Below, piece after piece: positions 1,396 to 33,598 of a stretch of DNA of 33,598 nt (positions are counted from its first letter, which is position 1; every line of letters begins with the position of its first letter). The stretch comes from a virus. Taxonomy: Duplodnaviria > Caudoviricetes. The notes under the pieces were generated by a model, which did not search any database, was not told the origin of the DNA, and worked only from the letters and a program-made list of their open reading frames with translations. The position numbers were made by a program, and so were the translations under genes. The stretch is taken from positions 1-33,598 of IMG/VR virus record IMGVR_UViG_3300014656_000084, one strand, 5' to 3'.

Positions 1396-1407
1396 TAGGA
1401 GGTAGCC

Positions 1408-1638
1408 ATGAAACAATTTTATACTTGTTGGGTTGAGGGTACAAGTGGTGGTTATGGCAGTAAGCACACTACCTTTGTTAGTGCAAAGACTGAATCAGAA
1501 AGACTAGCCAATCTAGCAGAGAATAAGGGCAAGACGGTTTATGTCCTCTGTTGTTTAGGGTACACAAAAGTTGTTACAACAGTATGGGAAAACTGCGAAA
1601 TCGATGAAACCGATGAAACCGATGAAATGCCATTTTAG
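1408..1638 (+). CDS. Hypothetical protein, flanked by TAGGAGGTAGCC direct repeats
   Basis: AGGAGG RBS; 76-aa ORF ending in a DETDETDEMPF acidic tail. Confidence 0.75.
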   Translation: MKQFYTCWVEGTSGGYGSKHTTFVSAKTESERLANLAENKGKTVYVLCCLGYTKVVTTVWENCEIDETDETDEMPF

Positions 1639-1653
1639 GAGGTAGCCTATGAC

Positions 1654-1722
1654 ATGAAACTACAACTGAATAAACTAGCCAAGTTTATAGAAAATAAAAA
1701 AGAAAGGAAGTCTAAACACTAA
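1654..1722 (+). CDS. 22-aa Lys-rich mini-ORF (MKLQLNKLAKFIENKKERKSKH)
   Basis: Read manually; follows AGGAGG and an overlapping ATG-ACA-TGA minigene at 1649-1657. Confidence 0.35.
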   Translation: MKLQLNKLAKFIENKKERKSKH

Positions 1723-1778
1723 AAGGGCATCAAGAGGGGAGGGTACTCTCACACCCTCCTCCTTGAAAGGAGCGGAAG

Positions 1779-2123
1779 TTGGAAAATTTGACATTGGAAG
1801 ATATTGAAAAAGCCATTGTTATAGCTGAGGAAAGAAATATTATATTATACTCTGTTGAAGCATCCTATAAATCTTGCAGGGATATTAAAATGCTGCCATC
1901 GTTTTATCCGGTAAAAGAGGATAGTATACTAACCATGTATCGTGGTGTACGGATAATATCTTCCGCATGGATTCCTGACGATATGGCGGTGCTGACTTAT
2001 ATTACAAGATGGGGTACAAGGAAAGTAGTTATTGATAATATAGGGACTAATCCTCCCTTGACCAGAAGGAGAATCGATGAAAGGCATATTACTAAAACCA
2101 GACCTGATAAGAGCTACTGTTGA
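1779..2123 (+). CDS. Hypothetical protein
   Basis: TTG start after AAGGAG; 114 aa. Confidence 0.6.
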   Translation: MENLTLEDIEKAIVIAEERNIILYSVEASYKSCRDIKMLPSFYPVKEDSILTMYRGVRIISSAWIPDDMAVLTYITRWGTRKVVIDNIGTNPPLTRRRIDERHITKTRPDKSYC

Positions 2124-2703
2124 GGGTAGAAAGACACATACCCGCAGGCTGAGAGGCTTGGAGAAGATTAACGAGTGTCCTGATGATTGGGAATTGGAGA
2201 ATCCTGAATATGCAATCACAATTCCTGAAGGTGCGTTTGTATTCCGTAATAGAACAAACGAGTTGGTTATGGTCAAGCCATACGTCAAAATAGGGGAGAC
2301 AGCCTATATCAAAGAGGCTTGGCGGTTCTTCGGGTGGGATTATGAAGAAGGGCAATTTAGACTAGAGTACAAAGATGGTGGTGTAGGTATTTGGCTTTGT
2401 TTAACCGAAGAAATATTTGGTAAATACTGGTATGCTGGTATAGACTTACAAGATGATAAATGGAGACCTCCTCTCTTCATGCCTGAGTTTGCATCGAGGC
2501 ACAAAGTTAATTTCCTTTCAGCCGTTCCAAAGAGGCTACATGATATGACTGAGGAAGATATTAAGGCAGAGGGTTTTGATGGTAATTACACTAATATTGG
2601 ATATTACTATGTTTTTGGACAAGCTTGGAACTCAATGAATCCCGACCACACTTGGGATAAAAACGAGTGGGTGATAGATTATGGTTTCAGATTGGAGAAG
2701 TGA
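2077..2703 (+). CDS. ASCH/PUA-like domain phage protein, copy 1
   Basis: MKGILLKPDLIRATVEGRKTHTRR N-terminus, YIKEAW, WRPPLFMPEFASR, RLHDMTEEDIKAEG and W..NEWV motifs typical of this phage family. Confidence 0.8.
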   Translation: MKGILLKPDLIRATVEGRKTHTRRLRGLEKINECPDDWELENPEYAITIPEGAFVFRNRTNELVMVKPYVKIGETAYIKEAWRFFGWDYEEGQFRLEYKDGGVGIWLCLTEEIFGKYWYAGIDLQDDKWRPPLFMPEFASRHKVNFLSAVPKRLHDMTEEDIKAEGFDGNYTNIGYYYVFGQAWNSMNPDHTWDKNEWVIDYGFRLEK

Positions 2704-2870
2704 TGCCAGAAATAATAAAAGTGAACGGTAAGAACAAGATAGAGCATACCTGTGATTGCGGTGCTGTCAGATTATTGCCCTGCGATAGGAACGGCAAGGT
2801 CAGGAACACGACAGGGCTGTGCGAGAAATGCTCACGGAAAGCCAATAACTTTATTGTGAGGGGAAGGTAG
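2703..2870 (+). CDS. Small Zn-ribbon-like protein
   Basis: TGATG overlap with the upstream stop; CDCG and CEKC motifs; start at 2703 preferred over 2667. Confidence 0.65.
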   Translation: MPEIIKVNGKNKIEHTCDCGAVRLLPCDRNGKVRNTTGLCEKCSRKANNFIVRGR

Positions 2871-2871
2871 G

Positions 2872-3423
2872 ATGAAAATATTAATAGCTTGTGAATTTAG
2901 CGGTATTGTAAGAGAAGCATTTAAGGCTAGAGGACATAATGTGTGGAGTTGTGACTTATTACCTACCGAAATACCAGGACAGCATATACAGGATGATATA
3001 CTGAAACACCTTGACGATGGTTGGGACTTGATGATTGCTCACCCGTATTGTACAGATACTGCTATTTCTGGGGCCCGGTGGTTTCCTGAGAAGATAGCTG
3101 ATGGTAGACAGCAAAAAGCTATAGGTTTCTTTCTAGTATTGGCTACTGCCGATATTCCCAAGATAGCACTGGAACATCCTATATCCATAATGTCAACAGT
3201 TTATAGAAAACCCGACCAGATAATACAACCTTGGCAATTTGGCCATGGTGAGATAAAGGCTACCTGCCTGTGGTTAAAGAACCTTTCATTACTACGACCT
3301 ACCAATATAGTGGATGGTCGTGAGGCAAGAGTTCATAGAGAGCCACCGTCATCCGACCGATGGAAGAATAGGTCAAGAACATTACCTGGTATAGCAAAAG
3401 CAATGGCAGAACAATGGGGCTAA
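2872..3423 (+). CDS. Short phage DNA cytosine (C5) methyltransferase-like protein
   Basis: LIACEFSG (motif I-like), WSCD, MIAHPYCT (motif IV-like, usually HPPCT), ALEHP (ENP-like), QPWQFGH, KATCLWL, RSRT..GIAKAMAEQWG. Confidence 0.85.
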   Translation: MKILIACEFSGIVREAFKARGHNVWSCDLLPTEIPGQHIQDDILKHLDDGWDLMIAHPYCTDTAISGARWFPEKIADGRQQKAIGFFLVLATADIPKIALEHPISIMSTVYRKPDQIIQPWQFGHGEIKATCLWLKNLSLLRPTNIVDGREARVHREPPSSDRWKNRSRTLPGIAKAMAEQWG

Positions 3424-3463
3424 CAGGTGTAGCCAATAACTTTGTGATTAAAGGGAGGCAAGC

Positions 3464-3911: not shown

Positions 3912-3940
3912 TTGACATTGTAATAACATTGTAGTATAAT
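3912..3940 (+). promoter_or_regulatory. Consensus sigma70 promoter of the replication operon, with internal ACATTGTA direct repeats
   Basis: TTGACA (3912-3917), 17-bp spacer, TATAAT (3935-3940); ACATTGTA at 3915-3922 and 3926-3933. Confidence 0.85.
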
Positions 3941-3947
3941 CGTAATT

Positions 3948-4136
3948 ATGAATATTAAAGAATTAGAAACAGGATTGGAAACTAAAACAGAACAGGTTAT
4001 ATTCCGGTTGACTTCCGAAGAGAAACAGGGATTATTCAAAGAGGCACAGAAGTTAGGTATCTCCACTTCTGCCTTTATCCGCTTACTCTACCGTTCATGG
4101 CTAAACGGAAACGTCAACATTAACTCTATGAGGTAA
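3948..4136 (+). CDS. Ribbon-helix-helix (CopG/MobC-like) DNA-binding protein
   Basis: KTEQVIFRLTSEEK...AQKLGISTSAFIRLL RHH pattern. Confidence 0.75.
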   Translation: MNIKELETGLETKTEQVIFRLTSEEKQGLFKEAQKLGISTSAFIRLLYRSWLNGNVNINSMR

Positions 4137-4138
4137 TT

Positions 4139-4540
4139 ATGAATATGGAAGTATTTATAGCTACCAGAGAGGCGGAGCGTTGCCTCTTAGGTGCTATACT
4201 GATACAACACGCATTATCTACCACATACTTGGGCTTACCGAGTGCTATAGAATCAGTACGCAATATCATTAATCCAGATGATATTTACGACCAGCAAAAC
4301 AGGCGCATACTCACAGCTATGTTTAATTGCCAAAAGCCTCACCAGATTAACGTAGCACAGGAATTACACAGGACGGATAAACTTCAGCGTGGGGATTGTA
4401 CCCACATGAGCCATTGCATTATAGAGTGCCCCTGCTCGTTAGACTATGATTCCTATGCACAGGCTGTCAAAAACTATTCCAATATGAGAAAAGGTATAGA
4501 GCTTAAAAAGAAACCAGTAATAATAGGCGGTATAAATTGA
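4139..4540 (+). CDS. Stand-alone DnaB N-terminal-domain-like protein
   Basis: EAERCLLGAIL...PDDIYDQQNRRILTAM resembles the DnaB N-terminal EAEqavLGaiL...pedFy...hr.If.am pattern. Confidence 0.7.
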   Translation: MNMEVFIATREAERCLLGAILIQHALSTTYLGLPSAIESVRNIINPDDIYDQQNRRILTAMFNCQKPHQINVAQELHRTDKLQRGDCTHMSHCIIECPCSLDYDSYAQAVKNYSNMRKGIELKKKPVIIGGIN

Positions 4541-5802
4541 CTGAATTAGAAATACCTGCGTTTAGTAAAGACCTGAATGGTTATGCTCTTTACTGGCCAT
4601 CTATAGATATAACTATGAAGTGTGAACGTGTTTCAGATGATGCTAAGGGTGAATTAGTGGTAATACATGACAACGGTATTGGCACTAAAGAGCTTCTCCG
4701 GACAAGCGTAAACCTGATGTCTCTGCCGACAATGGACAAAATAGCTACCAGGTTATTAAAAAACTCCAAAGACATTGACTGGCAAGCAGCACTTCAATAC
4801 TGTACCAAGTTAGTTGTATCTGCTCTCCGTGAAGGCGGAATACAGGAAAATATAAATCAAGAGCCTAAAATAATGAGAATACCTTTATTGATTGACCCGA
4901 TAATACCTCTTAATATGCCGACCACCATCTTCTCAGCAGGTGGTAAGGGAAAATCTACCATAGCAGATTACTTCGCTATCCTTGTACAGTTCGGTATCTG
5001 TGCTGACGGTAATCTACCCTTTGTCCCGATGCAAGCGAATGTCCTCTATCTTGATTGGGAAGCCGATGCTGATACTCACCGGAGATATATTACCGCTATT
5101 AAAAGGGGATTACATATTGACAATGACGAACCAATCCTGTACAGGCAAATGAGTAATCCTCTTATCAATTCAGTGGAGTATGTACGCAGCCAGGTAGCAC
5201 AATTCGATATTGGTTTTATCATCATAGATTCCGTAATGGCTGCCACCGCTACCAGTGGACACGGACAAAGCGAGTCCACTATTGCTTCTGAGTTCTATAA
5301 CTGCCTTAATTCTTTCCGGTGTACTTCATTATCTATCGACCACATAACTAAATCTGATATGTCCAGCAACCAGGCTACCGCACCATTCGGTAGTGTCTCA
5401 AAGTTTAACAGGTCCCGAGCGCAGTATGAATTAAAATCAGATGATGATGATAGCGACCACAAAGAGTATGCGCTGGTATCAAAGAAGTTTAACCCGGGAC
5501 GGAGCCGGAAGCCGATAGGAATGGCGGTAGACTTTTACAATGATAGCGATGATACATTACAAAGTATACGCTTCTCAGCCTGTGATATTGGCAGTAATAA
5601 TGATTTAGCTGAAAGGGTATTAACCAAGCGGCAGCGTATAATAAATATTTTGCAATCAGAAGGCACAGCAGCTATTAAGGATATTGCCGAAATGTTGAAC
5701 GAGCCGGACAATACAAAAAGTATCGGTGTTATACTGGCAAAAGACAAGAAAACATTTGTAAAAATCGGTACTGGAAAATATGGGTTGTTAGAAAATTTTT
5801 GA
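4537..5802 (+). CDS. RecA-fold AAA_25/RepA-like replicative helicase with C-terminal winged helix
   Basis: Walker A AGGKGKST, VLYLDWE, Walker B FIIIDS, IDHITK, PFGS; C-terminal AIKDIAEML helix-turn-helix. Confidence 0.85.
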   Translation: MTELEIPAFSKDLNGYALYWPSIDITMKCERVSDDAKGELVVIHDNGIGTKELLRTSVNLMSLPTMDKIATRLLKNSKDIDWQAALQYCTKLVVSALREGGIQENINQEPKIMRIPLLIDPIIPLNMPTTIFSAGGKGKSTIADYFAILVQFGICADGNLPFVPMQANVLYLDWEADADTHRRYITAIKRGLHIDNDEPILYRQMSNPLINSVEYVRSQVAQFDIGFIIIDSVMAATATSGHGQSESTIASEFYNCLNSFRCTSLSIDHITKSDMSSNQATAPFGSVSKFNRSRAQYELKSDDDDSDHKEYALVSKKFNPGRSRKPIGMAVDFYNDSDDTLQSIRFSACDIGSNNDLAERVLTKRQRIINILQSEGTAAIKDIAEMLNEPDNTKSIGVILAKDKKTFVKIGTGKYGLLENF

Positions 5803-5990
5803 GGCTAAATAAAAAAGTTGTTAGAAGGTTGTTAGATTTTTTTCTAACAAGGGGTTGAGACTAGATGGAAAAGTTGTTAGAAATTTTTGAGGCTAATCTA
5901 ACAAAGTTGTTAGAAGTTAGAATCTGGTTAGCTAACAAAACACTACTACTCTTTAGAGTAGTGTTGTTAGTTATTTGTTAGATGTTAGAA
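5784..5990. repeat. Iteron-like repeat cluster with hairpin; putative replication origin
   Basis: GTTGTTAGA at 5784, 5817, 5828, 5873 and 5906, plus partial copies at 5963-5990; inverted (T)CTAACAA at 5843, 5897 and 5932; hairpin at 5932-5970; AT-rich; directly after the helicase. Confidence 0.8.
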
Positions 5991-6148: not shown

Positions 6149-6679
6149 GTGTATATGAAATCATTTTTATTCAAACCTGAAATGCTAAAAGCCTTTGTAG
6201 AGGGTAGAAAGACCCTAACTAGCCTATTGCATGGGCTGAAAGAGATTAATGAGAATCCTGGTGATTGGTATTGTTTACTTAGGGACAAGTTATCAGGTGA
6301 TTATCTTGTTAAATGCAAAATCACAGGTAAACAAGTAATAGTCAAGCCCCGCTTTCAGGTGGGTGATAAGTTCTACTGCAAAGAGGGTTATTGGGTAGAT
6401 AGCAAGTGGAAATCACACCTATTAATGCCTGAATGGGCAGCAAGGTACTTCGGGGAGATAACATCAGTTAAACTCGATAGACTTCAGAATATGACTGAGA
6501 AGGATGCCGTGGATGAGGGAGTTGATTACAGCACAGGTCATGCGGACAAAAAAGAATGGACTCGTATAAATTCCTTTATCGACTTGTGGGACTCAACCAA
6601 CAAGGTCTATACGTGGGAGAAAAACCCCTGGGTCTGGACATACGGAATAAAACTAACAGCCTATCCGGTTAATTCCTAA
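6149..6679 (+). CDS. ASCH/PUA-like domain phage protein, copy 2
   Basis: Paralog of 2077-2703 (FKPEMLKAFVEGRKT, YCKEGYW, WKSHLLMPEWAAR, RLQNMTEKDAVDEG, WEKNPWVW). Confidence 0.78.
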   Translation: MYMKSFLFKPEMLKAFVEGRKTLTSLLHGLKEINENPGDWYCLLRDKLSGDYLVKCKITGKQVIVKPRFQVGDKFYCKEGYWVDSKWKSHLLMPEWAARYFGEITSVKLDRLQNMTEKDAVDEGVDYSTGHADKKEWTRINSFIDLWDSTNKVYTWEKNPWVWTYGIKLTAYPVNS

Positions 6680-6693
6680 ACGAGCCTATAGGC

Positions 6694-7244: not shown

Positions 7245-7329
7245 ACCTTTAACACCATTTTACTGAAGGAACTGAAATAGAGGGAGTGCCCCTTGTGCTA
7301 TGGATTTATTGAGGTAAAGGAGGTAAAGA

Positions 7330-7902
7330 ATGATTAACAATAATGAAACTAAGATGGTTATGTTTGATAGTGATGAGGCAGCTACTTATAAGGCAAATAT
7401 ATCTGGTTGGGTAAGTAGGCATGGGCGCTTTTTAGGTAATGATGAGCGTGCTGCAAGGTATGATGGTTGTACCCATACTCGCTGTGAGGATTGCGGTGAG
7501 CCTGTTGATAGAGGTAGATTGGTATGTCCTCAATGCCATGAGAACAGACAAATAAAGAGATATGATGCCATGCCAAAAGAGGAATGGAACGGCGAGGGGA
7601 TGATCTATTCCGCTGCTGCCGATAGATTTTTCCGAGATTGGGATGACGTTGAAAATTGCCTTGAGGATGAAGGTGGGACAGCAGATAGTTTGCGCCTGAT
7701 AATCTGTGAGCCTGAATATTTACCACCAATTCCTGACGATTACGGTTGTGATGAGTTGGCTGAAGATGGTGAATTACCAGATGAAGTTGCTCAAGCAATA
7801 GAGGAATTTAACAAGGTGATTATAGCGGCGGGAGCAGTATCATGGTTTCCTGGGAAGAAAGCTGTATTATTACAAAGCAGTATGAGGGTAAAGAATGATT
7901 AA
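7330..7902 (+). CDS. Hypothetical phage protein with Zn-finger-like motifs
   Basis: AAGGAGGT RBS; ARYDGCTHTRCEDCG...CPQC. Confidence 0.8.
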   Translation: MINNNETKMVMFDSDEAATYKANISGWVSRHGRFLGNDERAARYDGCTHTRCEDCGEPVDRGRLVCPQCHENRQIKRYDAMPKEEWNGEGMIYSAAADRFFRDWDDVENCLEDEGGTADSLRLIICEPEYLPPIPDDYGCDELAEDGELPDEVAQAIEEFNKVIIAAGAVSWFPGKKAVLLQSSMRVKND

Positions 7903-8529: not shown

Positions 8530-8543
8530 GGTGGAGGTAGAAA

Positions 8544-9089
8544 ATGAACGATACTGAGAAGACGGAGACTACAAAGCAAGCCAAAATAGATAAAATTACA
8601 AAGGGACTGACAGCGATATTAACCGACCCATCCTTAGTTGATAATGTTATAACTTATCTATATAGAAATCATGTGGTCATAGAAATAGAACCTTGGTTGG
8701 AATTACCTCTTGAAAGAGAAAAGAGTATTGGATGTCCTAGTTGTAGAGGGTATGGGAAGATTGACCATTATAAGAGGACAGAATATTATAGACCTACCCA
8801 TGCAGAGATGTATGATGATGGGCGACACGGTGGATGTTTCGGTAGAGAATACACCCATACAACAATTTGTGAGCGTTGCAAGGGTAAGAAACGAATACCT
8901 ATAAATGAAATACTTAAAGACGAGAAATGTCCTTGGTGTACAGATGGCAAAAAATATAATCATAGTTCGGAAAACCAGTTTCTTGTTCCTTGTTCACAAT
9001 GTGAGGGAACTGGTCAATTAAAACCACTTTTAATTAGAGGTTCTTTAAGGGATGTAATTGAGTACGCTATGGTTATAAGTTTGAAGTAG
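8544..9089 (+). CDS. Protein with four DnaJ-type CxxCxGxG-like zinc-finger repeats
   Basis: CPSCRGYG, CERCKGKK, CPWCTDGK, CSQCEGTG; GGAGG RBS. Confidence 0.8.
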   Translation: MNDTEKTETTKQAKIDKITKGLTAILTDPSLVDNVITYLYRNHVVIEIEPWLELPLEREKSIGCPSCRGYGKIDHYKRTEYYRPTHAEMYDDGRHGGCFGREYTHTTICERCKGKKRIPINEILKDEKCPWCTDGKKYNHSSENQFLVPCSQCEGTGQLKPLLIRGSLRDVIEYAMVISLK

Positions 9090-9102
9090 AAAGGAGAATT
9101 TA

Positions 9103-9447
9103 ATGAACGATGCTGAGAAGATTAAGAAGGTGAGGGAAGAGATACACGAAGTTATAACATATCCTACTTGCAAGAAGTGTCAGTATTGGGATAGGCAAGG
9201 GCATTATTGTTATAGCGAGAGCGTTGGGGTTGATTTAACAAGTTGTGAATTGCTTGACAAAATCCTCGCCATTGATGGGCTAGTGGTAAAGTCAGACGAC
9301 CAGAATTTGCCTGAATATCGGAAGTGTTCAGATGTATCCGATTTTTATAATAGTGAAGTGATAAAACCAGCCTTTAGAGATTGTTTTATACCGACTACAC
9401 CAACGGATATGCTTAAAGACGGCTGGATTAAACCAATAAGGAAGTAG
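9103..9447 (+). CDS. Hypothetical Cys-containing protein
   Basis: AAGGAG RBS; CKKCQYW...C. Confidence 0.72.
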   Translation: MNDAEKIKKVREEIHEVITYPTCKKCQYWDRQGHYCYSESVGVDLTSCELLDKILAIDGLVVKSDDQNLPEYRKCSDVSDFYNSEVIKPAFRDCFIPTTPTDMLKDGWIKPIRK

Positions 9448-10192: not shown

Positions 10193-10322
10193 AAGGGGGA
10201 ATATGACAACTAACGGCAATGGGTTTTAATTAGTAAGAGGTGACACCGCTGTATATTATTATAGTATATTATAATATACATGGGCGAAAGCGTAAGCTGA
10301 ATATTACATAAAGGTAAAAGTT

Positions 10323-10712
10323 GTGAAATTAAACCAGATAACTTGGGCCAGATGGCGGGTAATTGACCCTTACAACGATAAGTATTACAACGTGTTTACG
10401 GTAAGCATACCACAGCCGAGTTATCAATATCCATGTGCAGCGGTATTGTTGAGTATCGCAAGCGGCAAGAACAAGGTACTACTCCGGTTTGGTTCATTAG
10501 ATGAATTGAGAGAAATATTTATCACCCCTGATGATTACAGGGAACGGTTAGAGCTAGGGTATCGGATGGCGATAGAGCAACGAGACAAAATACAACGACA
10601 TCTCAAAACCTTTATAGCGTTAGAGACGGCAAAGGGAGCAGTTGTCGATACTGGGACAGGTGAGATATTGGCAGAAGCGGAGAGAATCGTAAATGGTAAG
10701 CAACGGCAATAA
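10323..10712 (+). CDS. Hypothetical protein
   Basis: GTG start, 129 aa, C-terminal VDTGTGEI motif; overlaps terS. Confidence 0.65.
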   Translation: MKLNQITWARWRVIDPYNDKYYNVFTVSIPQPSYQYPCAAVLLSIASGKNKVLLRFGSLDELREIFITPDDYRERLELGYRMAIEQRDKIQRHLKTFIALETAKGAVVDTGTGEILAEAERIVNGKQRQ

Positions 10713-13624: not shown

Positions 13625-13633
13625 GGAGTCCGA

Positions 13634-14428: not shown

Positions 14429-14472
14429 TGCTTAATTTATCGGCTATTCGGCAAACAGTGAGGAAAGAGTAA

Positions 14473-14784
14473 ATGGTCATACAAAATGATAATTCGGCAA
14501 GGGGCGTAGAAAGAATGGCAACAGTAAGCGAGATATTCTGGCACAAGAATAGTCACGGGAAATGCCCTCAGTGTGGGCGAGAGCGTGACCTGGGTATGGT
14601 CAATGACAAATTCCAAGACCAGTTCAAAGACCGCTGTATTGACTGCTGTTTCGGCCCGCCTATGGAATACTGGGACATGTGTGACGCCTGCGGACAACTT
14701 TACGTAGGTGAGCACTGCGATAACCCTAAGTGTGCTGAGGGGTCACCGGAGACACCCCCGCCCAGTGAGGCTGTGAACCCATGA
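14473..14784 (+). CDS. Cys-rich metal-binding protein
   Basis: CPQC, CIDCC, CDAC and HCDNPKC in 103 aa. Confidence 0.7.
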   Translation: MVIQNDNSARGVERMATVSEIFWHKNSHGKCPQCGRERDLGMVNDKFQDQFKDRCIDCCFGPPMEYWDMCDACGQLYVGEHCDNPKCAEGSPETPPPSEAVNP

Positions 14785-14843
14785 CAACGTATTTGCTAGG
14801 TGCGTATTTACTGAATGAAAACGGAGCGTATTTGCTGGAATGA
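14781..14843 (+). CDS. 20-aa repeat peptide MTTYLLGAYLLNENGAYLLE (not in the ORF track)
   Basis: ATGA overlaps at both ends (upstream stop 14782-14784, downstream start 14840); three YLL repeats with synonymous codon variation. Confidence 0.6.
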   Translation: MTTYLLGAYLLNENGAYLLE

Positions 14844-15673
14844 AGATTATACGAGTCTTTCCCCGCCGTACTTCATTCACCCCAAAAGATGATATGGCTG
14901 TTGTTGGCTCTCCCCCCCTATTTATGCCTGCCCCAACTGCTGTATCAGACATCGAGGTTCACGTATCCTGCACCTTTACTTGGGACAAACCGAAAGCGGA
15001 ATATTTGGCTAAGGCATGGCGGCAATATTTCCCTGTAAAAATTGGCGGTCCCGCTTATGATGACCCCTGCGATGGTTTTACACCTGGGCTATATCTTAAG
15101 CAGGGTGTAGTCATCACAAGCCGTGGTTGTAACCATAAATGCCCGTGGTGTCTGGTGTGGCGCAGAGAGGGGGCATTGCGGTTGCTTACAATCACAGAGG
15201 GGAACATTGAGCAGTCAAATAGCCTACTACAATGCCCACGTTCTCACATCGATAGCGTCCTTGATATGCTTACTACTCAACACCAGGTCTGTTTAGCGGG
15301 CGGTTTGGAATCTTCTCTGGTTAGTCAATGGTTTGCGGATAGAGTCCGTTCCCTTAGAATCAAACAGGTATTCATGGCGTGCGATACCAAAGAGGCTATC
15401 AAGCCGCTCCGCAAAGCCATTAACCTATTAGGGCTTGGACAGCATAAGACCTACTGCTACGTCCTTTTGAAGTTCAACCCTAATGAGACTATAAGCGAAG
15501 CCACTGAACGCATGATTGATATTTGGCAGGCTGGCGCTACGCCCTTCGCCCAGCTTTACCAGCCGCCGGATCACTGGATAGATTACCCTATCGAATGGAG
15601 GCACTTTCAGCGCACGTGGTCGAGACCAGCGGCAATGAGAGCATTTATGAAGTCTTTTCCACACTCTCCCTAA
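14840..15673 (+). CDS. Radical SAM protein (phage-type, with N-terminal region resembling a truncated B12-binding domain)
   Basis: TSRGCNHKCPWC (CxxxCxxC) at 15128-15151; VSCTFTW...IGGPA N-terminus; YVL and PFAQLY C-terminal motifs. Confidence 0.88.
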   Translation: MKIIRVFPRRTSFTPKDDMAVVGSPPLFMPAPTAVSDIEVHVSCTFTWDKPKAEYLAKAWRQYFPVKIGGPAYDDPCDGFTPGLYLKQGVVITSRGCNHKCPWCLVWRREGALRLLTITEGNIEQSNSLLQCPRSHIDSVLDMLTTQHQVCLAGGLESSLVSQWFADRVRSLRIKQVFMACDTKEAIKPLRKAINLLGLGQHKTYCYVLLKFNPNETISEATERMIDIWQAGATPFAQLYQPPDHWIDYPIEWRHFQRTWSRPAAMRAFMKSFPHSP

Positions 15674-15852
15674 TTTAGAAAAGGAGCTAAAGAGTGAATG
15701 ATTACACATCAAATGCCGGAAAGCCAATTTATCGATACGGATAATTGAAACAATACGGCTGGAAGAGCAAACTGTGACTGTGACCTTTGACAGCATCAGC
15801 ACAAGTACAAAATATAGTCAATCAAGAAAAACATCTTTTAGGAGTGTGAGGG

Positions 15853-24748: not shown

Positions 24749-24767
24749 AAACAGGAGGTAAACAGAT

Positions 24768-25187
24768 ATGGCAAGTGAAGCATTGGCAGGGTTTGGAGCA
24801 CTACTGAACTGGGATGGGGTAGATATAGCGGAGTTGACCAACATCAGCGGTCCAACGGAGACTATGGATACGATTGACGTGACCAGTCATGACTCTCCTG
24901 ATACATATCGGGAGTTCGTAGCTGGACTACGGAACGGCGGAGATATATCATTTGAGGGCAACTTCATCAAGGGAAATGCCACTGGGCAGATAGCTATGCA
25001 TACTGATTTCCAAGCCGGTGAGAAGAAGGCTTGGATTATCAAGCTGCCTGGTTGGGTTGCAGGAGTCCCGCAGATATCAGGAAATGGCTTTGTGACAGCA
25101 TTTTCAATGACCTACCCATATGAGGATAAAATCTCATTATCAGGGACAATAAAAGTTACAGGAATGCCAGTTCTGGCAGCAGCATAA
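24768..25187 (+). CDS. Tail tube protein, copy 1
   Basis: ISGP..T.DTIDVTSHDS...YREFVAGLR.GG.ISFEGN...KVTG.P. Confidence 0.9.
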   Translation: MASEALAGFGALLNWDGVDIAELTNISGPTETMDTIDVTSHDSPDTYREFVAGLRNGGDISFEGNFIKGNATGQIAMHTDFQAGEKKAWIIKLPGWVAGVPQISGNGFVTAFSMTYPYEDKISLSGTIKVTGMPVLAAA

Positions 25188-25205
25188 TAAAATAGGAGGT
25201 GAAAC

Positions 25206-25946
25206 ATGGTTTCAAGTGGTGTATCAGGTTTCGGTACGCTTTTGATATGGAATTATAATCGTATCCTGGAGATGATGAGTATAGGGGGACCGGCGCAGAC
25301 CAGAGATACGATAGATGTCACTAGCCATGATAGTCCAGATAATTATCGTGAGTTTGTGGCTGGACCTGCGTCAGGAGGTGAGGTGTCTATTGACGGAAAC
25401 CTCATAGTAGAAGACGAGCTTGGTCAGGTGGCATTTTATGCTAATATGCTATCAGGGACTAAACGGACTGCATGGATTGTGATGCCGATGGCAGTCGGAG
25501 CGTCGCTTTTGTTTGAGGCAATAGCGAAGAGCTTCAGCCTATCCGCTCCTCACGATGATAAGATTGGCGTATCTGCGGCGCTTCAGATTACCGGCAAGCC
25601 GACTCTATATGTGGCGCAATCGGCAGGTATGACTGTTCTAACTGGTAAGAAGTATGGCGGGGTAGATGCTGGTGCTGCTCTTGTGATAACACCGGCTGTA
25701 GCAGTTGATACGTACGCATATGGCTGCACAGTCGATGCGGATACGACTGGTGTTTTACTCACGGCGACAGCGGTCGGGCATATAGTCAGGATCCAAGGGG
25801 TGCTAGAAGGGACTGGGGTTGAGACTCCAGTTGCTATTACTCTTAATCCTGCCGGTGAGGATACTGAGGTATTCATTATGGTATATGAAACTCCTACTGT
25901 AAAATCGCCTAGATTGTATGTTTTAACGGTAACTAGACCAGCATAA
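25206..25946 (+). CDS. Tail tube protein, copy 2, with C-terminal cadherin/Ig-like extension
   Basis: Paralog core (DTIDVTSHDSPDNYREFVAG) plus about 105 aa beta-sandwich ending Y.LTVTR. Confidence 0.85.
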   Translation: MVSSGVSGFGTLLIWNYNRILEMMSIGGPAQTRDTIDVTSHDSPDNYREFVAGPASGGEVSIDGNLIVEDELGQVAFYANMLSGTKRTAWIVMPMAVGASLLFEAIAKSFSLSAPHDDKIGVSAALQITGKPTLYVAQSAGMTVLTGKKYGGVDAGAALVITPAVAVDTYAYGCTVDADTTGVLLTATAVGHIVRIQGVLEGTGVETPVAITLNPAGEDTEVFIMVYETPTVKSPRLYVLTVTRPA

Positions 25947-25960
25947 TAAAAGGAGAGAAA

Positions 25961-26299: not shown

Positions 26300-26598
26300 A
26301 CATATGGAGCTTTGGATGCCATAATCTAAGGCTATCCAGTCAGGAGTTTTGGAGATTGACAATGGCGCAGTTGGGTGCTTTATCCAGTCGATACAGGGAG
26401 GAGCAGAGAGGGTTAGACTTCAGGGCTGCTATGATATGTTCGGTGATAGCTGAGGTTAATAGGGATAGAAAAAGACGACCCAAGCCGTTCACTCCTGATG
26501 ATTTCCTGCCGAAAGAAGAATCAGAGGAGCTTGACAATCCGAAAATGAAGAGGGCTATGAAAAGAATCAATCAGATGCTTGGAGGGGAAGAGAGGTAA
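26272..26598 (+). CDS. Tail assembly chaperone -1 frameshift extension (gpT-like), slippery site C CCT TTA at 26272-26278
   Basis: In-frame X XXY YYZ heptamer; the -1 frame is open from there (…WLDIWSFG..NLRLSSQEFWRLT…) into the 26356-26598 ORF. Confidence 0.85.
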   Translation, partial: PFTQKFDWLDIWSFGCHNLRLSSQEFWRLTMAQLGALSSRYREEQRGLDFRAAMICSVIAEVNRDRKRRPKPFTPDDFLPKEESEELDNPKMKRAMKRINQMLGGEER

Positions 26599-26600
26599 TT

Positions 26601-28067: not shown

Positions 28068-28068
28068 T

Positions 28069-30135
28069 ATGGCAACAATAATTTTGAGACCTAATGCCGC
28101 AGGAGATGAAACTAATATTACAGAGCAATATCCAGTATCGGACAGCCATTATGATAAGGTTGATGAGGTGATAGCCGATGAGGATGCTACTTTCGTCTAT
28201 GAAAGTACAGGGGATGATAACTACTATAGGGATTTGTATAATCTGCCTATTTGTGGGCCAGTCGGAGCGATAGAGAATATAACAGTTTATGCTCGATGCA
28301 GAACCTATGGCGCTGGAGCTACGAGAGTTAGTATGAAAATATCTATCCAAACTGGGGGTACAGTTTATGAAGGGGCAGAGGAAACATTAACCAGCAGCTA
28401 TGCTAATTATTCAAAAACCTGGGCTTTAAATCCCAAAACTGGTATAGCTTGGGTTGAATCCGATATAGATGCTCTGCAAATTGGAATATCATTACGTAAT
28501 GCAGTGGAGCCTCCCAGTGCTCTTTCTTCTTTGTGTACCCAAATATGGGTAGTTATTACCTATTCCGAGACTCCGGTAATGATTACTAGAATAGCATTTG
28601 AAACAGACCCATTTGCTGATACTCCTATATGGGATGATGTTAGCGATGATGTTATTTCCTTTAGTTTCGCCAGAGGCAGACAACATGAATTAGATAGGTT
28701 CGAGGCTGGAGTTGCCACTCTACTGCTAAAAAATGACAATGGTGACTACTGGCCGTTAAATACCGTGGGAGAATATTATCCAAATGTAGATATCGGTAAG
28801 AAGGTCAATATCCGGGTAAGGTATAACGAAGTATATGACAGGTATACTGGATTTATAGAATCCATGACTCCAATATGGTTAAGTGACCGGGGAGGACTAG
28901 TGCCAGTGATGCAGATTAACTGCGCTGATGCTGTAACAATATTCTCCAGAACCCGGCTAAATACGAGTTACGGACAGCAGTTATCGGGAGCGAGAATAGG
29001 AGCAGTCCTTAATACAGTAGGATTTCCTTCCGCCGATAGACAGTTAGATGACGGTCAATTTACAATGATAGCCTCCGGGACTCTTGAGAATGTTCTGGCT
29101 CAAGAGCATATATTCAAAGTGGCAGAATCGGAATTAGGGCTTTTTTATATAGCTCCTGACGGTGATGCTGTATTTGAAGATAAATCGCATCGGACGGTGT
29201 CTCCGCATGATGTCAGCCAGGCTACTTTTAACGATTCTTTTGCAGATATAATATTATCACTCGATGACACCCTATTATTTAACGAGATTAGGCTTACTCG
29301 ACAGGGTGGCGCGGAGCAGGTAGCGACTGATTCTACCAGTAAAGAAAAATACGGATGGAGGTCTCTTGTTAGGTCAGGGTTATACGTAATATCAGATTTA
29401 ATTACAAAACTCTGCGTTTATTACCTGTTAGCCAGGTATGGCTCCCCTGCTATGAGAGCTGAGTCTATTACTATCGAGCCTCAGAGCAATCCGAACGTGC
29501 TATTTCCTCAAGTTTTAGGTTTCGGTATTTCAACACGAATCACTGTGCAGAAAGCTGAGGGGAGTATTGATGCTGATTATTTTATTGAGGGCATAGACGA
29601 GGATTACGACTTGCGGGACGGCAGATGGACGACCAGATGGCAGATATCTGATGCAGACAGATATTTATATGAACCGGAGGCTCAAGTGGAAACATTACGG
29701 CCTGACAGTATAGTAACAAAGTTGAATATGCATGATCAAGCTGGGGGTGCATTGACTTATGATGAACTGGCAGATGGGTTGGATGCTACATATGGTAAAA
29801 AAGAAACATCAACTTCAGCCTGTTCTGTTATATGTAGCCTACCCAACATCGTAAAGGGTACAGTGGAGAAGGTAACTGTCTATTGGAGAGTATCAGGAGC
29901 AAACGGATATATGAGCCTTGGGGTAAGACTAAATTCAGTGAATTATTTTGCATATGATACTGTTTCATTACCTCTCGGCACTTATTCGCATGAATACCTG
30001 CTGAACCCTGCGACAGGTTTAGCCTGGACGTGGGAAGAGGTAGATGAATTACAATTAATTGTGATTGATGTCTCTACTTATGATGTTTATATATATGATG
30101 TATGGGCGATAGTAAATTTTACGCCCAGTTGGTAA
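28069..30135 (+). CDS. Tail tip/baseplate hub protein with duplicated terminal beta domains
   Basis: Follows the TMP; central RGR..ELDRF.AG...L.N..G...P and E.G.FY...DG...F motifs; LNP.TG.AW...D.LQ repeated at both ends. Confidence 0.8.
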   Translation: MATIILRPNAAGDETNITEQYPVSDSHYDKVDEVIADEDATFVYESTGDDNYYRDLYNLPICGPVGAIENITVYARCRTYGAGATRVSMKISIQTGGTVYEGAEETLTSSYANYSKTWALNPKTGIAWVESDIDALQIGISLRNAVEPPSALSSLCTQIWVVITYSETPVMITRIAFETDPFADTPIWDDVSDDVISFSFARGRQHELDRFEAGVATLLLKNDNGDYWPLNTVGEYYPNVDIGKKVNIRVRYNEVYDRYTGFIESMTPIWLSDRGGLVPVMQINCADAVTIFSRTRLNTSYGQQLSGARIGAVLNTVGFPSADRQLDDGQFTMIASGTLENVLAQEHIFKVAESELGLFYIAPDGDAVFEDKSHRTVSPHDVSQATFNDSFADIILSLDDTLLFNEIRLTRQGGAEQVATDSTSKEKYGWRSLVRSGLYVISDLITKLCVYYLLARYGSPAMRAESITIEPQSNPNVLFPQVLGFGISTRITVQKAEGSIDADYFIEGIDEDYDLRDGRWTTRWQISDADRYLYEPEAQVETLRPDSIVTKLNMHDQAGGALTYDELADGLDATYGKKETSTSACSVICSLPNIVKGTVEKVTVYWRVSGANGYMSLGVRLNSVNYFAYDTVSLPLGTYSHEYLLNPATGLAWTWEEVDELQLIVIDVSTYDVYIYDVWAIVNFTPSW

Positions 30136-30154
30136 AATGTGAAGGGATAATGCC

Positions 30155-30427
30155 ATGGCTGATAAAACAGGAAAAACCGATAGGGTATTAGCAGAGGTAA
30201 TAGAGGCTAAGAGTGCTGTACGGCTGCTTGTAGTAAAGCTGTACGGCGAAAATGGATTTGAAGGTGATATAACCGAGATTAAAAGGAAACTAACATTGAT
30301 AGATGAGATACAAGCGCGGAGTAAGATTAATCGGTATATTATAATAGGGATGCTAACCGTACTGGCAGGCGGTGGCGGTGTGGGAGCAACCAAGATTCTA
30401 CAGATAATATCACAAATAACACAGTAG
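30155..30427 (+). CDS. Single-TM coiled-coil protein, holin-like
   Basis: Last late gene; C-terminal hydrophobic YIIIGMLTVLAGGGGVG segment. Confidence 0.55.
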   Translation: MADKTGKTDRVLAEVIEAKSAVRLLVVKLYGENGFEGDITEIKRKLTLIDEIQARSKINRYIIIGMLTVLAGGGGVGATKILQIISQITQ

Positions 30428-30449
30428 ACAGTAATTAAATATGAAATGT

Positions 30450-30482
30450 AACAGGGCGGGTAAAACCCGCCCTGTTTTTTTG
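30450..30482 (+). terminator. Rho-independent terminator ending the late operon
   Basis: AACAGGGCGGGT-AAA-ACCCGCCCTGTT followed by a T run. Confidence 0.92.
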
Positions 30483-30517
30483 TCTAAAAATATATTTTGC
30501 ATTTTGTAAATTAGCTA

Positions 30518-30546
30518 TTGACAAATCGTGATTAATCCTGTATAAT
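30518..30546 (+). promoter_or_regulatory. Consensus sigma70 early promoter
   Basis: TTGACA (30518-30523), 17-bp spacer, TATAAT (30541-30546); AT-rich upstream element. Confidence 0.88.
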
Positions 30547-30581
30547 ATTGATATAGAATTATACATAGAGGGAGAAAGGCA

Positions 30582-31016
30582 TTGACTACACAAGACACGG
30601 TTACCATGGACAGAATCACACTTGAGAAGATAAAATTTGGGATTCAGGAAATGGTTAGTTCCTCAGTAATGGGTGATATGCAATATGAAAGCATAGATGA
30701 TATTGTCACACGGTCCATTATTAAACGACTCACTATTTATCTGTGGGGTAATAAGGTTAATTCCGAAGAACATGATGATATTGTGCATACTTACCCTGCA
30801 ACCATGTGGGAAGAATTGAAGCGTGATTTCTGGCCTGCGTGGTTAAAGCGTAAGTTTCCAGTAAGATATTCAAAAGACATTACCCACCACACAAGCATAC
30901 ACTACCATGTTTGTCCTCACCTAAACCATAAAGTTGACCATGACCACTTGAGTTTTATGATGCGTAATGACATTAGAGTCAATGAAGTAGAAAACGATAT
31001 AGAAAGGGGCTACTAG
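30582..31016 (+). CDS. Hypothetical early protein
   Basis: 144 aa; YPATMWE..K....P.WL..KFPVRY...CPH motif. Confidence 0.72.
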   Translation: MTTQDTVTMDRITLEKIKFGIQEMVSSSVMGDMQYESIDDIVTRSIIKRLTIYLWGNKVNSEEHDDIVHTYPATMWEELKRDFWPAWLKRKFPVRYSKDITHHTSIHYHVCPHLNHKVDHDHLSFMMRNDIRVNEVENDIERGY

Positions 31017-31217
31017 ATGGAAGAACAACCGATAGAATTTCATAAACTGATAAAGAAACTGAGGATATATTTCAAGACCCAAGATGCACTGGCTCAGAAG
31101 CTAAAGGTAACAAGGCTGACAATCAGTAATTGGGAAAGCCAGAGGTCACGCCCTACAAATCGCTCAATACGCCAGGTAAACCGGCTGGCGAAGGATGCCG
31201 GAATGGAGGTTAAGTAA
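31017..31217 (+). CDS. XRE/Cro-like helix-turn-helix regulator
   Basis: IKKLR....TQDALAQKLKVTRLTISNWE....RP. Confidence 0.9.
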   Translation: MEEQPIEFHKLIKKLRIYFKTQDALAQKLKVTRLTISNWESQRSRPTNRSIRQVNRLAKDAGMEVK

Positions 31218-31218
31218 A

Positions 31219-31422
31219 ATGGTATGTTATAAACCAGGCAAAGAGACAGGCTTATGGTTTGAAATCAAATGTATCACCGAGGACATTTCCAGCAAGTCCA
31301 AAAAAGGGGAGTCCTGTAACCATGAAAAGGAAGTACTAAAAGCACTCCTGAAAAAGAAACGCATGGAAGATGCACAGAAGCCATGCGTTAGGCGTGAGAC
31401 ATCGAAATCTGACAGTTTATAG
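31219..31422 (+). CDS. Hypothetical protein
   Basis: GGAGG RBS before ATG 31219 (ORF track start 31195). Confidence 0.55.
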   Translation: MVCYKPGKETGLWFEIKCITEDISSKSKKGESCNHEKEVLKALLKKKRMEDAQKPCVRRETSKSDSL

Positions 31423-31457
31423 CCCTAACCTATAGATTACCATAAGGGAGGTACATT

Positions 31458-31634
31458 ATGGAAGCCGCGAGGGATTATATTTTGGAATGTCATACTGTTA
31501 TTTGTACTGGTGGTATTCACTGCCGAAATGCATCCGCACAACAATGCAGTAGATGTATGTGCGCTGTTTGCTCAAGAAGTAAATGTGTTGCTGAAGCGGT
31601 AAAAATCTATGATTTAGCAAAGGAAAGAGGGTAA
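31458..31634 (+). CDS. 58-aa Cys-rich micro-protein (not in the ORF track)
   Basis: GGGAGGT RBS; MEAARDYILECHTVICTGGIHCRNASAQQCSRCMCAVCSRSKCVAEAVKIYDLAKERG. Confidence 0.7.
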   Translation: MEAARDYILECHTVICTGGIHCRNASAQQCSRCMCAVCSRSKCVAEAVKIYDLAKERG

Positions 31635-31637
31635 ACT

Positions 31638-31841
31638 GTGGTAAACGATTATGAACGACTGCAAGGTAGTGACTGGCAAAGCCTGACAACACCGGAGAAT
31701 TACCACCGAGAAGTTGTTAAACTCAGGGCTGAGATTGAGGAATTGAAGGCAATAATAGAATGTTACCAAGAAGCTGTGCAAGAGGCGGTAAAAATCTATG
31801 ATTTATCAAAAAAAGGAGGTAATTATGAAAAAATGGATTAA
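31638..31841 (+). CDS. Coiled-coil hypothetical protein
   Basis: GAGGG RBS, GTG start; shares EAVKIYDL with the upstream gene. Confidence 0.65.
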   Translation: MVNDYERLQGSDWQSLTTPENYHREVVKLRAEIEELKAIIECYQEAVQEAVKIYDLSKKGGNYEKMD

Positions 31842-32034
31842 ACCGATACAACAAATGGGAGCTTGTCGAGAAGCGACGGCCACAGGCAACAGTGTCAACA
31901 TTGACATATACGAAGTCCCGATAGGGGAACTAACCAAGCTCAGAGATAGGCTCAATGAAATATTGGGTGATAGCCCCATTGAGGAGCTGCGGAGGCAGTC
32001 ATCCTGCTGCTCCGAGCCGTATGGGGGTAGTTAG
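31825..32034 (+). CDS. Hypothetical protein
   Basis: AAGGAGGT RBS before ATG 31825. Confidence 0.65.
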   Translation: MKKWIKPIQQMGACREATATGNSVNIDIYEVPIGELTKLRDRLNEILGDSPIEELRRQSSCCSEPYGGS

Positions 32035-32202
32035 ATGAAATATCTAGGATGGAAACAAGCCGGTTTTTACGGTGTGCAGTGTAGTAAATGCCAGGAAGTC
32101 TTGGTCGGTGAAGACCCTGTGCATTTGATATCAAATGAGGATGGAACAAACGAGGCAAAGGTATTGTGTACCAAGTGCCTGAAGGAGGCAATTAATGTCT
32201 GA
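32035..32202 (+). CDS. 55-aa CxxC...CxxC zinc-ribbon micro-protein (not in the ORF track)
   Basis: GGGGGT RBS; CSKC and CTKC. Confidence 0.65.
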   Translation: MKYLGWKQAGFYGVQCSKCQEVLVGEDPVHLISNEDGTNEAKVLCTKCLKEAINV

Positions 32203-32344
32203 GTTTACCTGTATCATCAGACCGTCAGTCGACTACTGTACTGTGTGCGGTGGTAATATATATCAGATGGACGGTATGACTGCCAAACAACTGGAAGCAC
32301 AGGAAAGAGAAGAAAGAGAAGAAATTGAGGAGGAACAAGAATAA
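32195..32344 (+). CDS. 49-aa acidic micro-protein (not in the ORF track)
   Basis: AAGGAGG RBS; CTVCGG and a Glu-rich tail; TAATG coupling to the next gene. Confidence 0.6.
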   Translation: MSEFTCIIRPSVDYCTVCGGNIYQMDGMTAKQLEAQEREEREEIEEEQE

Positions 32345-32775
32345 TGACTGAACTAAAAGAGCAAATCAAGGTGGTTGCGGATGCACGGAGTAGGGCTCAA
32401 GAATTAAAGGGCATGAAAGAACATCTATATGATGAATGGGCTGAAATGAATAAAGAGCTTCTTACTGATTACGAAGCCGCAAAGCAGGCTATAATAGACG
32501 CTGAGTCGTTACTCCGTGAGCTAACACTCCAAGCCTACAAAGAGACAGGTAGTAAAACACCATGCCCGGGCGTTGGTGTCCGTGAAGTAACCAAGTTGTC
32601 CTACGATCAGAAGATAGCTTTTGATTGGGCAAAGTCTCATAAGATGGCTCTCAAATTAGACGTAACAGCCTTTGAAAAGATTGTGAAAGCAGACACTCCA
32701 GACTTCGTTAAGATTACCACTGAGGCTCAAGCAACGATAGCCACCGACCTGAATAAAGTATTGGAAGGAGAATAA
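32344..32775 (+). CDS. Coiled-coil protein, possibly Gp157/Mu Gam-like
   Basis: N-terminal coiled coil, then GV.VR...KL.YD...A..WA; located near ERF; family call tentative. Confidence 0.55.
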   Translation: MTELKEQIKVVADARSRAQELKGMKEHLYDEWAEMNKELLTDYEAAKQAIIDAESLLRELTLQAYKETGSKTPCPGVGVREVTKLSYDQKIAFDWAKSHKMALKLDVTAFEKIVKADTPDFVKITTEAQATIATDLNKVLEGE

Positions 32776-32776
32776 T

Positions 32777-32995
32777 ATGATAAAAGTTTATCTAAAAGAC
32801 GGACAAGAGGTAACTATTGACAAAGGCATGAGCGCCTACTATCAAAAGGTTATGCGAGATGTCAAGGCAGAAGAAGAAGTGGGAACTGTGCTTGAAGTAA
32901 GAAATAGCGGAACTTTTTATAGCGGAAAGGTTATTGCCAGCTTCAAGGCTGATGAAGTGCTATACTTCACAAACGAAACAGAGGAAGGAGAATAG
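32777..32995 (+). CDS. Small beta-rich hypothetical protein
   Basis: AAGGAG RBS; 72 aa. Confidence 0.72.
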   Translation: MIKVYLKDGQEVTIDKGMSAYYQKVMRDVKAEEEVGTVLEVRNSGTFYSGKVIASFKADEVLYFTNETEEGE

Positions 32996-32998
32996 AAT

Positions 32999-33592
32999 AT
33001 GTATCTCACCTTAGAAAAAGCAAGGCAGTTGTATGCAGGCGCTATCATCGGGGAAGGCGCTATCATCGAGCAAGGCGCTATCATCGAGCAAGGCGCTTAC
33101 ATCAGGAAAGGCGCTATCATCAGGAAAGGCGCTTACATCGAGCAAGGCGCTTACATCGGGAAAGGCGCTTACATCGGGAAAGGCGCTATCATCGAGCAAG
33201 GCGCTTACATCGAGCAAGGCGCTATCATCGAGCAAGGCGCTTACATCGGGGAAGGCGCTATCATCAGGAAAGGCGCTTACATCAGGAAAGGCGCTATCAT
33301 CAGGAAAGGCGCTTACATCGGGAAAGGCGCTTACATCGGGAAAGGCGCTTACATCGGGAAAGGCGCTTACATAATTACTATTCATTCAAAGTATACTTGT
33401 AATATTTCACCGTCAAAAAGTGGTGTGTTTATCCGCATGGGTTGCGAAATTCATCTCGCACAATATTTCAAAGACCACGGCGAGGCACTCGCTAGGAAGC
33501 ATGGTGAACTGGAATGGTGGAATAAGACAGGTGTTAATATATTGAAATATTTATTGATGGAAGCCGAAAATTATATAAAGGAAGGAGAATAG
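32999..33592 (+). CDS. Hexapeptide-repeat (left-handed beta-helix) protein
   Basis: 18 GA[IY]I(GE/EQ/RK/GK) units, then an IRMGCEIH C-terminal domain; AAGGAG RBS. Confidence 0.88.
   Translation: MYLTLEKARQLYAGAIIGEGAIIEQGAIIEQGAYIRKGAIIRKGAYIEQGAYIGKGAYIGKGAIIEQGAYIEQGAIIEQGAYIGEGAIIRKGAYIRKGAIIRKGAYIGKGAYIGKGAYIGKGAYIITIHSKYTCNISPSKSGVFIRMGCEIHLAQYFKDHGEALARKHGELEWWNKTGVNILKYLLMEAENYIKEGE
33038..33372 (+). repeat. 18-bp tandem repeat array (18 full units plus a partial unit)
   Basis: GGCGCT-(ATC|TAC)-ATC-(GGGGAA|GAGCAA|AGGAAA|GGGAAA). Confidence 0.97.
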
Positions 33593-33598
33593 AATATG
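33476..33598. repeat. Terminal direct repeat (123 bp), identical to 1-123
   Basis: Exact identity with the contig start. Confidence 0.97.

Follow-up and report, generated by a model that had tools for sequence, protein, structure and literature searches.

Direct repeats at translation junctions bracket single small genes in an uncultured phage genome, and one repeat pair recombines in nature

Gene content of the circular phage genome

The subject of this analysis is the 33,598-nucleotide IMG/VR virus record IMGVR_UViG_3300014656_000084 (hereafter, the window), in which individual small genes lie between two copies of a short direct repeat situated where one gene ends and the next begins. The window is a circular contig consisting of a 33,475-bp circle and a 123-nt overlap of its ends (positions 1-123 are the same as 33476-33598), and all 57 genes called in it are on the + strand, as are the repeat-bracketed loci described below. 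Based on Pfam and PHROG matches the phage encodes a terminase, portal, protease, HK97-type capsid protein, two tail tube proteins, a tape measure protein, an ERF-family protein and RusA, and it also has a DnaB-N and AAA pair and many small genes; this gene set marks it as a siphophage. Three contigs in Chloroflexota genome bins have portals with 61-70% identity to that of the phage, two of them named Dehalococcoidia or Dehalococcoidales, and the host is therefore likely to be of the Dehalococcoidia group. Near-identical DNA is present in groundwater sequencing runs.

The gene for the ERF-family single-strand annealing protein (121..984) was identified by its matches to PF04404 (E 6e-24; 85 bits relative to a curated cut-off of 25) and PHROG 2324. 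An earlier reading of the sequence alone (the sequence-only reading) had proposed that the repeats act without an integrase or transposase, and neither was found: the tyrosine and serine recombinase families (PF00589 and PF00239) were not found in a six-frame search of the window that did detect its controls, and Pfam identified no transposase among the 57 proteins. The sole PHROG match labeled as an integrase was a weak match to the N-terminus of the capsid protein.

Repeats at adjacent gene junctions exceed chance

All ten repeat pairs listed in the sequence-only reading are present in the window. As the window is circular with a 123-nt overlap, the repeat copy at 33579 is also the copy directly before the ERF gene at 121. 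Chance was assessed using 58 curated gene starts (chosen with knowledge of the repeats), windows from -60 to +30 and in-register runs of identity (offset within 6 nt), with junctions three or more genes apart (n = 1,537) as the distant pairs. Runs of at least 13 nt were found at 6 of the 58 adjacent junctions versus 4 of the 1,537 distant pairs, and runs of at least 12 nt at 8/58 versus 7/1,537. None of 20,000 permutations of junction order, each of which preserves every Shine-Dalgarno sequence, reached the observed count at either threshold, and the outcome was the same without the register rule, bearing out the expectation that adjacent junctions would be more alike than chance allows. With starts from an automatic gene caller the counts were 4/52 adjacent versus 3/1,381 distant. 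Runs of 16 nt or more occur in three adjacent pairs and in 0/1,537 distant pairs, the longest distant runs being 13-15 nt.

Seven of the ten listed pairs are above chance. These are 2840/3431 (13 nt), 7322/7887 (16 nt), 25180/25939 (13 nt), 31596/31785 (21 nt), 32982/33579 (20 nt), 1396/1636 (12 nt, largely Shine-Dalgarno sequence) and 8543/9102, which matches at 19 of 20 positions with an ungapped score of 17.5 (scores of at least 14 occur in 5/1,482 distant pairs). Two further pairs, 3942/4133 (14 nt) and 32763/32983 (12 nt), had been missed. The three other listed pairs are at chance level. The pair 30550/30996 (30550..31004) has 9 nt out of register, and even in-register runs of 9 nt occur in 63/1,537 distant pairs. 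The remaining two were judged by their length, outside the permutation test: 14464/15689 (14464..15700), which surrounds two accessory genes and matches at 11 of 12 positions, has a second start that opens just 16 codons, and 10203/10693 (10203..10710), 9 nt plus ATG around a 129-residue gene before the small terminase gene, has a first start that opens 8 codons and is suggestive only. The latter might represent a duplication of the small terminase start; L004, L160 and L162 have no alignable junction. The proposed count of about ten cassettes was consequently too high, on account of these three pairs and of the second tail tube gene (see below).

The exact cores of the repeats are 12-21 bp, and the longest imperfect stretch, at 31596/31785, is ~38 bp. 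Each pair has a different sequence and no motif is common to all pairs, in agreement with the claim that there is no shared attachment site. When the DNA between two copies was deleted in silico, the upstream gene stayed open and the downstream start was kept wherever these exist; the claim that deletion leaves genes intact is correct to this extent, but the final residues of two upstream genes are altered. A promoter scan of 30300-33598 identified a single promoter matching at 12 of 12 positions, at 30518, away from the repeats.

A head-to-tail joint at the hexapeptide gene

The 197-residue hexapeptide-repeat protein (left-handed beta-helix; Pfam Hexapep, E 2e-22) is encoded at 32999..33592, with the ERF gene directly behind it on the circle. 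Copy 1 of its 20-bp repeat (32982..33001) comprises the end of a 72-residue gene, a ribosome site, and the stop together with the start of the hexapeptide gene, and copy 2 (33579..33598, equivalent to 104-123) comprises the end of the hexapeptide gene, a ribosome site and the ERF start. The window itself is cut at the last base of copy 2.

We compared contigs of four sequencing runs (X1-X4) with window positions 24000-33598, and the counts given here rest on the joints and contig pieces listed in that comparison. In X4, one 295-nt contig of depth 3.2 covers 33334-33578 without difference and then jumps to 32982-33031. The 50 letters beyond this jump (33578 to 32982) include the 20 of the repeat, a single copy of which is retained, and the head-to-tail unit is 597 bp, the length of the gene plus its ribosome site. 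X1 has one contig that stops at 33011 and another that begins at 32982, the first base of copy 1, while a 256-nt contig covers 33343-33598 at a depth of 17 versus 9.6-11 alongside; the stretch at depth 17 is composed of unique 31-mers, although contig depths are coarse and other organisms may contribute.

Assembly was simulated with a word size of k=31, which we assume was used for the run contigs as it fits the 30-nt overlaps seen. The head-to-tail form yielded exactly the three borders of X1 and a two-fold 256-nt piece, whereas a single copy of the gene gave no break there and an empty site (one repeat copy without the gene) broke the contigs at 32972 and at 33001, neither of which is a break in X1. 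Simulation with 123-nt nodes produced a long contig starting at 33476, the window's own cut point. A tandem and a circle simulate to identical contigs. The 32982/33579 pair recombines, and the head-to-tail joint that had been predicted for such a gene exists. As the breaks in X1 and the cut in the window match the simulation, a head-to-tail hexapeptide gene was probably collapsed during assembly, and as the empty site is missing we favor a natural tandem duplication, carried by a large share of the population, over a circle. Four other joints (31004 to 33570, 30727 to 30840, 32388 to 32511 and 29492 to 29575) have short sides and no shared letters and were set aside as belonging to other organisms.

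The nearest Atlas clusters to the hexapeptide protein are mostly viral and unnamed, and a homolog search with its C-terminal part found none. The gene is itself repetitive (33037-33372), being built of arrayed 18-bp units among which exact repeats reach 52 bp, so it may also vary in length. A 12-bp third copy of the 32982 junction motif is present at the end of a 143-residue gene (32763..32774), and the copies at 32763, 32982 and 33579 form a chain of three like junctions before the ERF gene. In L086, L100, L103 and L105, the 143-residue gene is kept upstream of ERF at a distance of 0.3-1.2 kb, and the genes that separate the two differ (window 32344-33598), and L086 and L105 have junction repeats of 11-12 bp in this interval. 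Because relatives hold different genes there, two of them with junction repeats, the interval looks like an insertion hot spot. In run X2 one contig has a variant 3' end of the 143-residue gene with about ten differences (window 32709-32733).

Other genes bracketed by repeats

The clearest case of cassette anatomy is the methyltransferase-family gene (2872-3423; PHROG 757), which has 13-bp repeats at 2840 and 3431 (2840..3443). Past its core, copy 2 continues as a close variant, or relic, of the C-terminus of the upstream gene (15/30 identical to the right of the core), and after deletion in silico the upstream gene has 57 residues and its stop overlaps the start of the gene that follows. The core of this pair is outside the ribosome site, as is that of the 21-bp repeats at 31596 and 31785, which bracket a 67-residue gene (31596..31805). 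Two neighboring small genes at the latter locus end in the same peptide. The only homolog of the 67-residue protein shares its first 38 residues and does not have the repeated C-terminal peptide, and there were no exact matches to the 21-mer in viral contigs.

A 181-residue cysteine-rich gene of low GC content (36.5%) is bracketed by the repeats at 8543 and 9102 (8543..9121), which cover both start codons, and a 76-residue gene by the largely Shine-Dalgarno repeats at 1396 and 1636 (1396..1647), the second copy of which is before a 22-codon frame at 1654. Based on Pfam and repeat comparison, a 62-residue ribbon-helix-helix-like gene (3948-4136) is located between the 14-bp repeats at 3942 and 4133 (3942..4146); part of this motif is found again at 26595 and 31819. 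A perfect sigma-70-type promoter (3912-3948) is positioned seven bases upstream of the start of this gene, whose message is likely leaderless.

Two loci with repeats above chance are more ambiguous. A 190-residue gene (PHROG 11053) with 16-bp repeats at 7322 and 7887 (7322..7902) precedes rusA. Its product has 210 homologs, although a search of 401 genomes from the class of G001 did not turn it up. The 60 homologs listed (of 120) have a common core with differing tails and several begin with similar first three residues, for which reason the repeat may be a chance match between the gene's own start and that of rusA. The second tail tube gene has 13-bp repeats at 25180 and 25939 (25180..25951). 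The repeat is real, yet the two tail tube genes are old paralogs and the second is not a gained cassette, as it is conserved in place in L160, whose own second tube natively has the same final residues as that of the window.

Junction repeats in other phages and their relation to ERF

Using two of the accessory genes we fetched 107 distinct loci (of 119) from other phages. Runs of at least 13 nt were found in 13/808 adjacent versus 5/3,026 distant pairs at these loci, and runs of at least 12 nt in 16/901 adjacent versus 37/8,571 distant pairs at 50 longer loci. Judged by these counts, the junction footprint is general in phage contigs, at about ten times background, and the supposition that it is special to this genome was not upheld. 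The methyltransferase family has its own flanking repeat of 13-19 bp, different each time, in 5/71 distinct loci (of 80), compared to 2/4,970 cross-locus pairs in a control, which lends support to the cassette reading of that gene. The window is nonetheless about five times or more denser in such repeats than four other sets (4/52 versus 8/567, 7/557, 2/321 and 2/577; Fisher p 0.013-0.0006, uncorrected, for a window picked for this trait).

ERF had been suggested as the driver of gene gain and loss. Beside ERF genes, repeats occur at 8/567 adjacent junctions versus 9/878 at other accessory loci (p=0.62), in a comparison for which the gene caller is crude and the ERF status of the phages in the 878-junction set is not known. 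The nearest head relative of the phage, G003, has no ERF match and 0/55 adjacent repeats of 11 nt or more. The ERF-bearing contigs L097, L100, L123, L131, L132, L146 and L084 have direct repeats of 15-29 bp that are 0.2-1.8 kb apart, many of which include a ribosome site and start. In L122 (1.6 kb), the start of the ERF gene is present twice (80-172 and 1509-1602, 1,430 bp apart), each time behind an imperfect junction repeat of ~30 nt, possibly reflecting a block joined head to tail, or a circle, with ERF inside it. We consider ERF a candidate driver that is unproven. The footprint is real and unusually dense in the window; a dedicated ERF-driven system is not shown.

Origin of the repeats

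We infer that the junction copies on either side of seven to nine short genes are scars of single-gene insertion at short homologies made up of a stop, ribosome site and start, and that the 20-bp pair of the hexapeptide gene is still active, likely as a tandem duplication. We would put the probability of this interpretation at roughly 0.6. Incoming DNA would pair with a junction already in the genome over about a dozen common bases, and a single crossover, or a target-copying insertion, would then place the junction on both sides of the insert. Such inserts could persist because translation would be undisturbed, the upstream stop, ribosome site and downstream start all remaining whole. Neither a dedicated recombinase nor a common site would be required, and a repeat pair, once in place, would permit the unequal crossover seen for one gene. 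The repeats, their excess over chance and the head-to-tail contig are observed; the direction of these events, a tandem in place of a circle, and the enzyme responsible (ERF or host RecA, if not replication slippage, which offers an alternative route) are our deductions.

Several observations weigh against this interpretation. An empty site was not found for any pair, including the four pairs covered by the four runs over 24000-33598, and no close relative was found: the best match was 74% for the large terminase, ~50-64% over the full domain for ERF (apart from L093, the window's own contig), 48% for the capsid protein and 30% for the replication ATPase, and a rusA search gave no relatives. 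In the family of the 190-residue protein, an own repeat of at least 12 nt is present in 0/27 distinct loci (of 39). In L160, both tail tube genes and the next gene are kept in the same order without a junction repeat, which shows that a gene long resident in the genome can come to lie between 13-bp junction repeats. Several repeat motifs recur elsewhere in the genome, the same short motifs being present 3-7 times. The explicit head-to-tail joint is a single contig in one of four runs, the breaks in X1, taken by themselves, could equally come from this cassette lying in a second context, and X1 is possibly the run behind the window. For 25180/25939, 30550/30996 and 31596/31785 there was no joint among those listed, and contigs of X1 and X2 run through them.

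The repeats could instead be leftovers of tandem duplication of resident genes, the interiors of which were later replaced or diverged, with no gene having arrived from elsewhere. The in-frame peptide ends or starts in common at 31596/31785 and 8543/9102 are what such an origin would leave, duplication at a repeat of this kind has been seen for the hexapeptide gene, and the tail tube genes are paralogs. However, an all-against-all comparison identified no similarity between neighbors beyond the repeat, and the methyltransferase and 190-residue genes are from widespread families unrelated to their neighbors, leading us to regard this origin as unlikely.

Still less likely, in our estimation, is a dedicated integrase-free system in which ERF makes single-gene circles and re-inserts them at junction repeats genome-wide. 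The density of repeats in the window, the position of ERF directly behind the active pair, the many ERF loci with junction-like repeats and the lack of both in G003 are consistent with it. In opposition are the equal rates beside ERF genes and elsewhere, the choice of the window for this very trait, and the finding of a joint for just one of four tested pairs, with no accompanying empty site. In addition, every exact core here is below the 23-27 bp cited as the pairing minimum for Redbeta, and the efficient recombination reported for the ERF-family protein ErfD3 was on diverged 800-bp repeats (De Paepe et al., 2014, PMC3945230). Such proteins do recombine diverged sequences efficiently and the phage encodes one, but we saw no data in that paper for homologies of 12-21 bp.

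The repeats might be insertion scars as we propose while the head-to-tail form is an excised circle amplified in the library, a chimera, or the cassette in another phage. Contigs cannot separate a tandem from a circle, the library methods of the runs are not on record, and the joint is a single contig of low depth. Excision, though, predicts the empty-site breaks that X1 does not have, and the same two break points are present in X1, in the X4 joint and in the window's own cut, so that we find such an artifact improbable. Convergence and chance among translation signals, with their narrow vocabulary of ribosome sites and stop/start codons, would explain three of the ten listed pairs and probably the tail tube pair, given the recurring motifs and the 13-15 nt attained by distant pairs, but as a whole explanation it was already refuted by order permutations that retain all motifs, has no distant pair of 16 nt to offer and does not extend to cores outside the ribosome site, making it the least probable of all.

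Beyond single-gene insertion in this phage, it is possible, and we offer it tentatively, that translation junctions are general integrase-free docking sites for small genes in wild phages, that each insertion leaves a private repeat pair which then serves as a one-gene accordion, and that in this phage one gene is near two copies per genome, hidden by assembly collapse and given away by the point at which the circular contig was cut. The entry of single small genes at phage gene borders is a long-standing question. In this genome several scars that look datable occur together, some 200 other loci supply a background rate, and one pair was caught in the act of recombining in nature. If a tandem is indeed present, metagenome assemblies miss collapsed single-gene amplifications, which flag genes selected for dosage, and the hexapeptide protein would be a candidate product of such a gene, perhaps under dosage selection by analogy with T4 tifA. 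If the docking-site idea is correct, contig cut and break points could be used to scan uncultured phages for dosage-selected genes, such as those for counter-defense.

Comparison with known systems

The closest known phenomena, by analogy, are insertion with target duplication, the LRRHood insert, PeSL shuffling and T4/T6 amplification. Restriction-modification genes have been described as inserted with a long target duplication (Furuta et al., 2010, PMC2853133), and as in the window the direct repeats are locus-specific, there is no mobility gene, orphan methyltransferases are included, and the repeats often cover a translation start or stop and leave the target gene whole. That screen required repeats of >30 bp and a relative with the empty site; the repeats here are 12-21 bp, flank mainly genes unrelated to restriction-modification, are numerous in one phage and have no empty site found. 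In mycobacteriophage LRRHood, a gene block lies between copies of a 29-bp direct repeat located where a gene ends, and related phages hold one repeat copy at that site, a proven empty site for a four-gene case (Pope et al., 2011, PMC3029335). The window differs in its single genes, its shorter repeats and their presence at 6-8/58 junctions. The same paper attributes the idea of boundary sequences to Clark et al. (2001) and states that they are missing at most mosaic borders. In our data, the one orthologous comparison, at the L160 tail tube junctions, showed no repeat, and the 21-mer had no exact match in viral contigs.

The PeSL cassettes of T4-type phages (Arbiol et al., 2010, PMC2839356; Comeau et al., 2014, PMC4122927) are similar in that single small genes are gained and lost without an integrase via flanking junction sequences, with head-to-tail circles. 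PeSLs, though, are one motif family (promoter, stem-loop and ribosome site) and their circles are reported at ~1 in 100,000 virions, whereas in the window each locus has a private repeat without such a shared motif, and a head-to-tail product, whether circle or tandem, was found at one of four pairs (32982/33579) at near 1 per genome. The absence of a tyrosine or serine recombinase and of a common att site also sets the loci apart from integrons.

In the "genomic accordion" of T4 and T6, segments bounded by microhomology are amplified (Srikant et al., 2022, PMC9391042; PMC13096335). The tandem junctions retain one copy of the flanking short repeat, as the X4 joint does with its 20 shared letters, and coverage of the unit is raised. 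Those amplifications arose under laboratory selection at microhomologies of 6-10 bp, and their borders varied; the unit in the present case comprises precisely a single gene and its ribosome site and comes from a wild population with no selective agent known. Since T4 amplifies genes at homologies that short, no special system is needed for the repeats in the window. What this analysis adds is the density of such loci in one genome, the background rate, and a likely natural one-gene amplification read from assembly breaks; in a literature search that covered subscription journals thinly, we found no paper that had described single genes amplified naturally in uncultured phages and no paper on these phages.

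Additional features of the genome

Neither a lysin nor a holin was recognized by Pfam or PHROGs among the 57 proteins, and CheckV estimates completeness at 67%, though the contig closes. Behind the AAA gene, an A+T-rich stretch (5783-5990) holds clustered repeats of 10-16 bp, which are likely origin iterons. Two ASCH-like paralogs of PHROG 874 (2077-2703 and 6155-6679) are 32% identical. A 58-residue protein had no homolog besides itself. Between the large terminase and the portal there are six genes (12463-16179), where L004 has ~190 bp and L053, L062, L069 and L070 have a gap of <150 bp. At 30450-30546, a strong terminator is followed by the promoter with the 12-of-12 match, from which the early genes begin, the hexapeptide gene among them.

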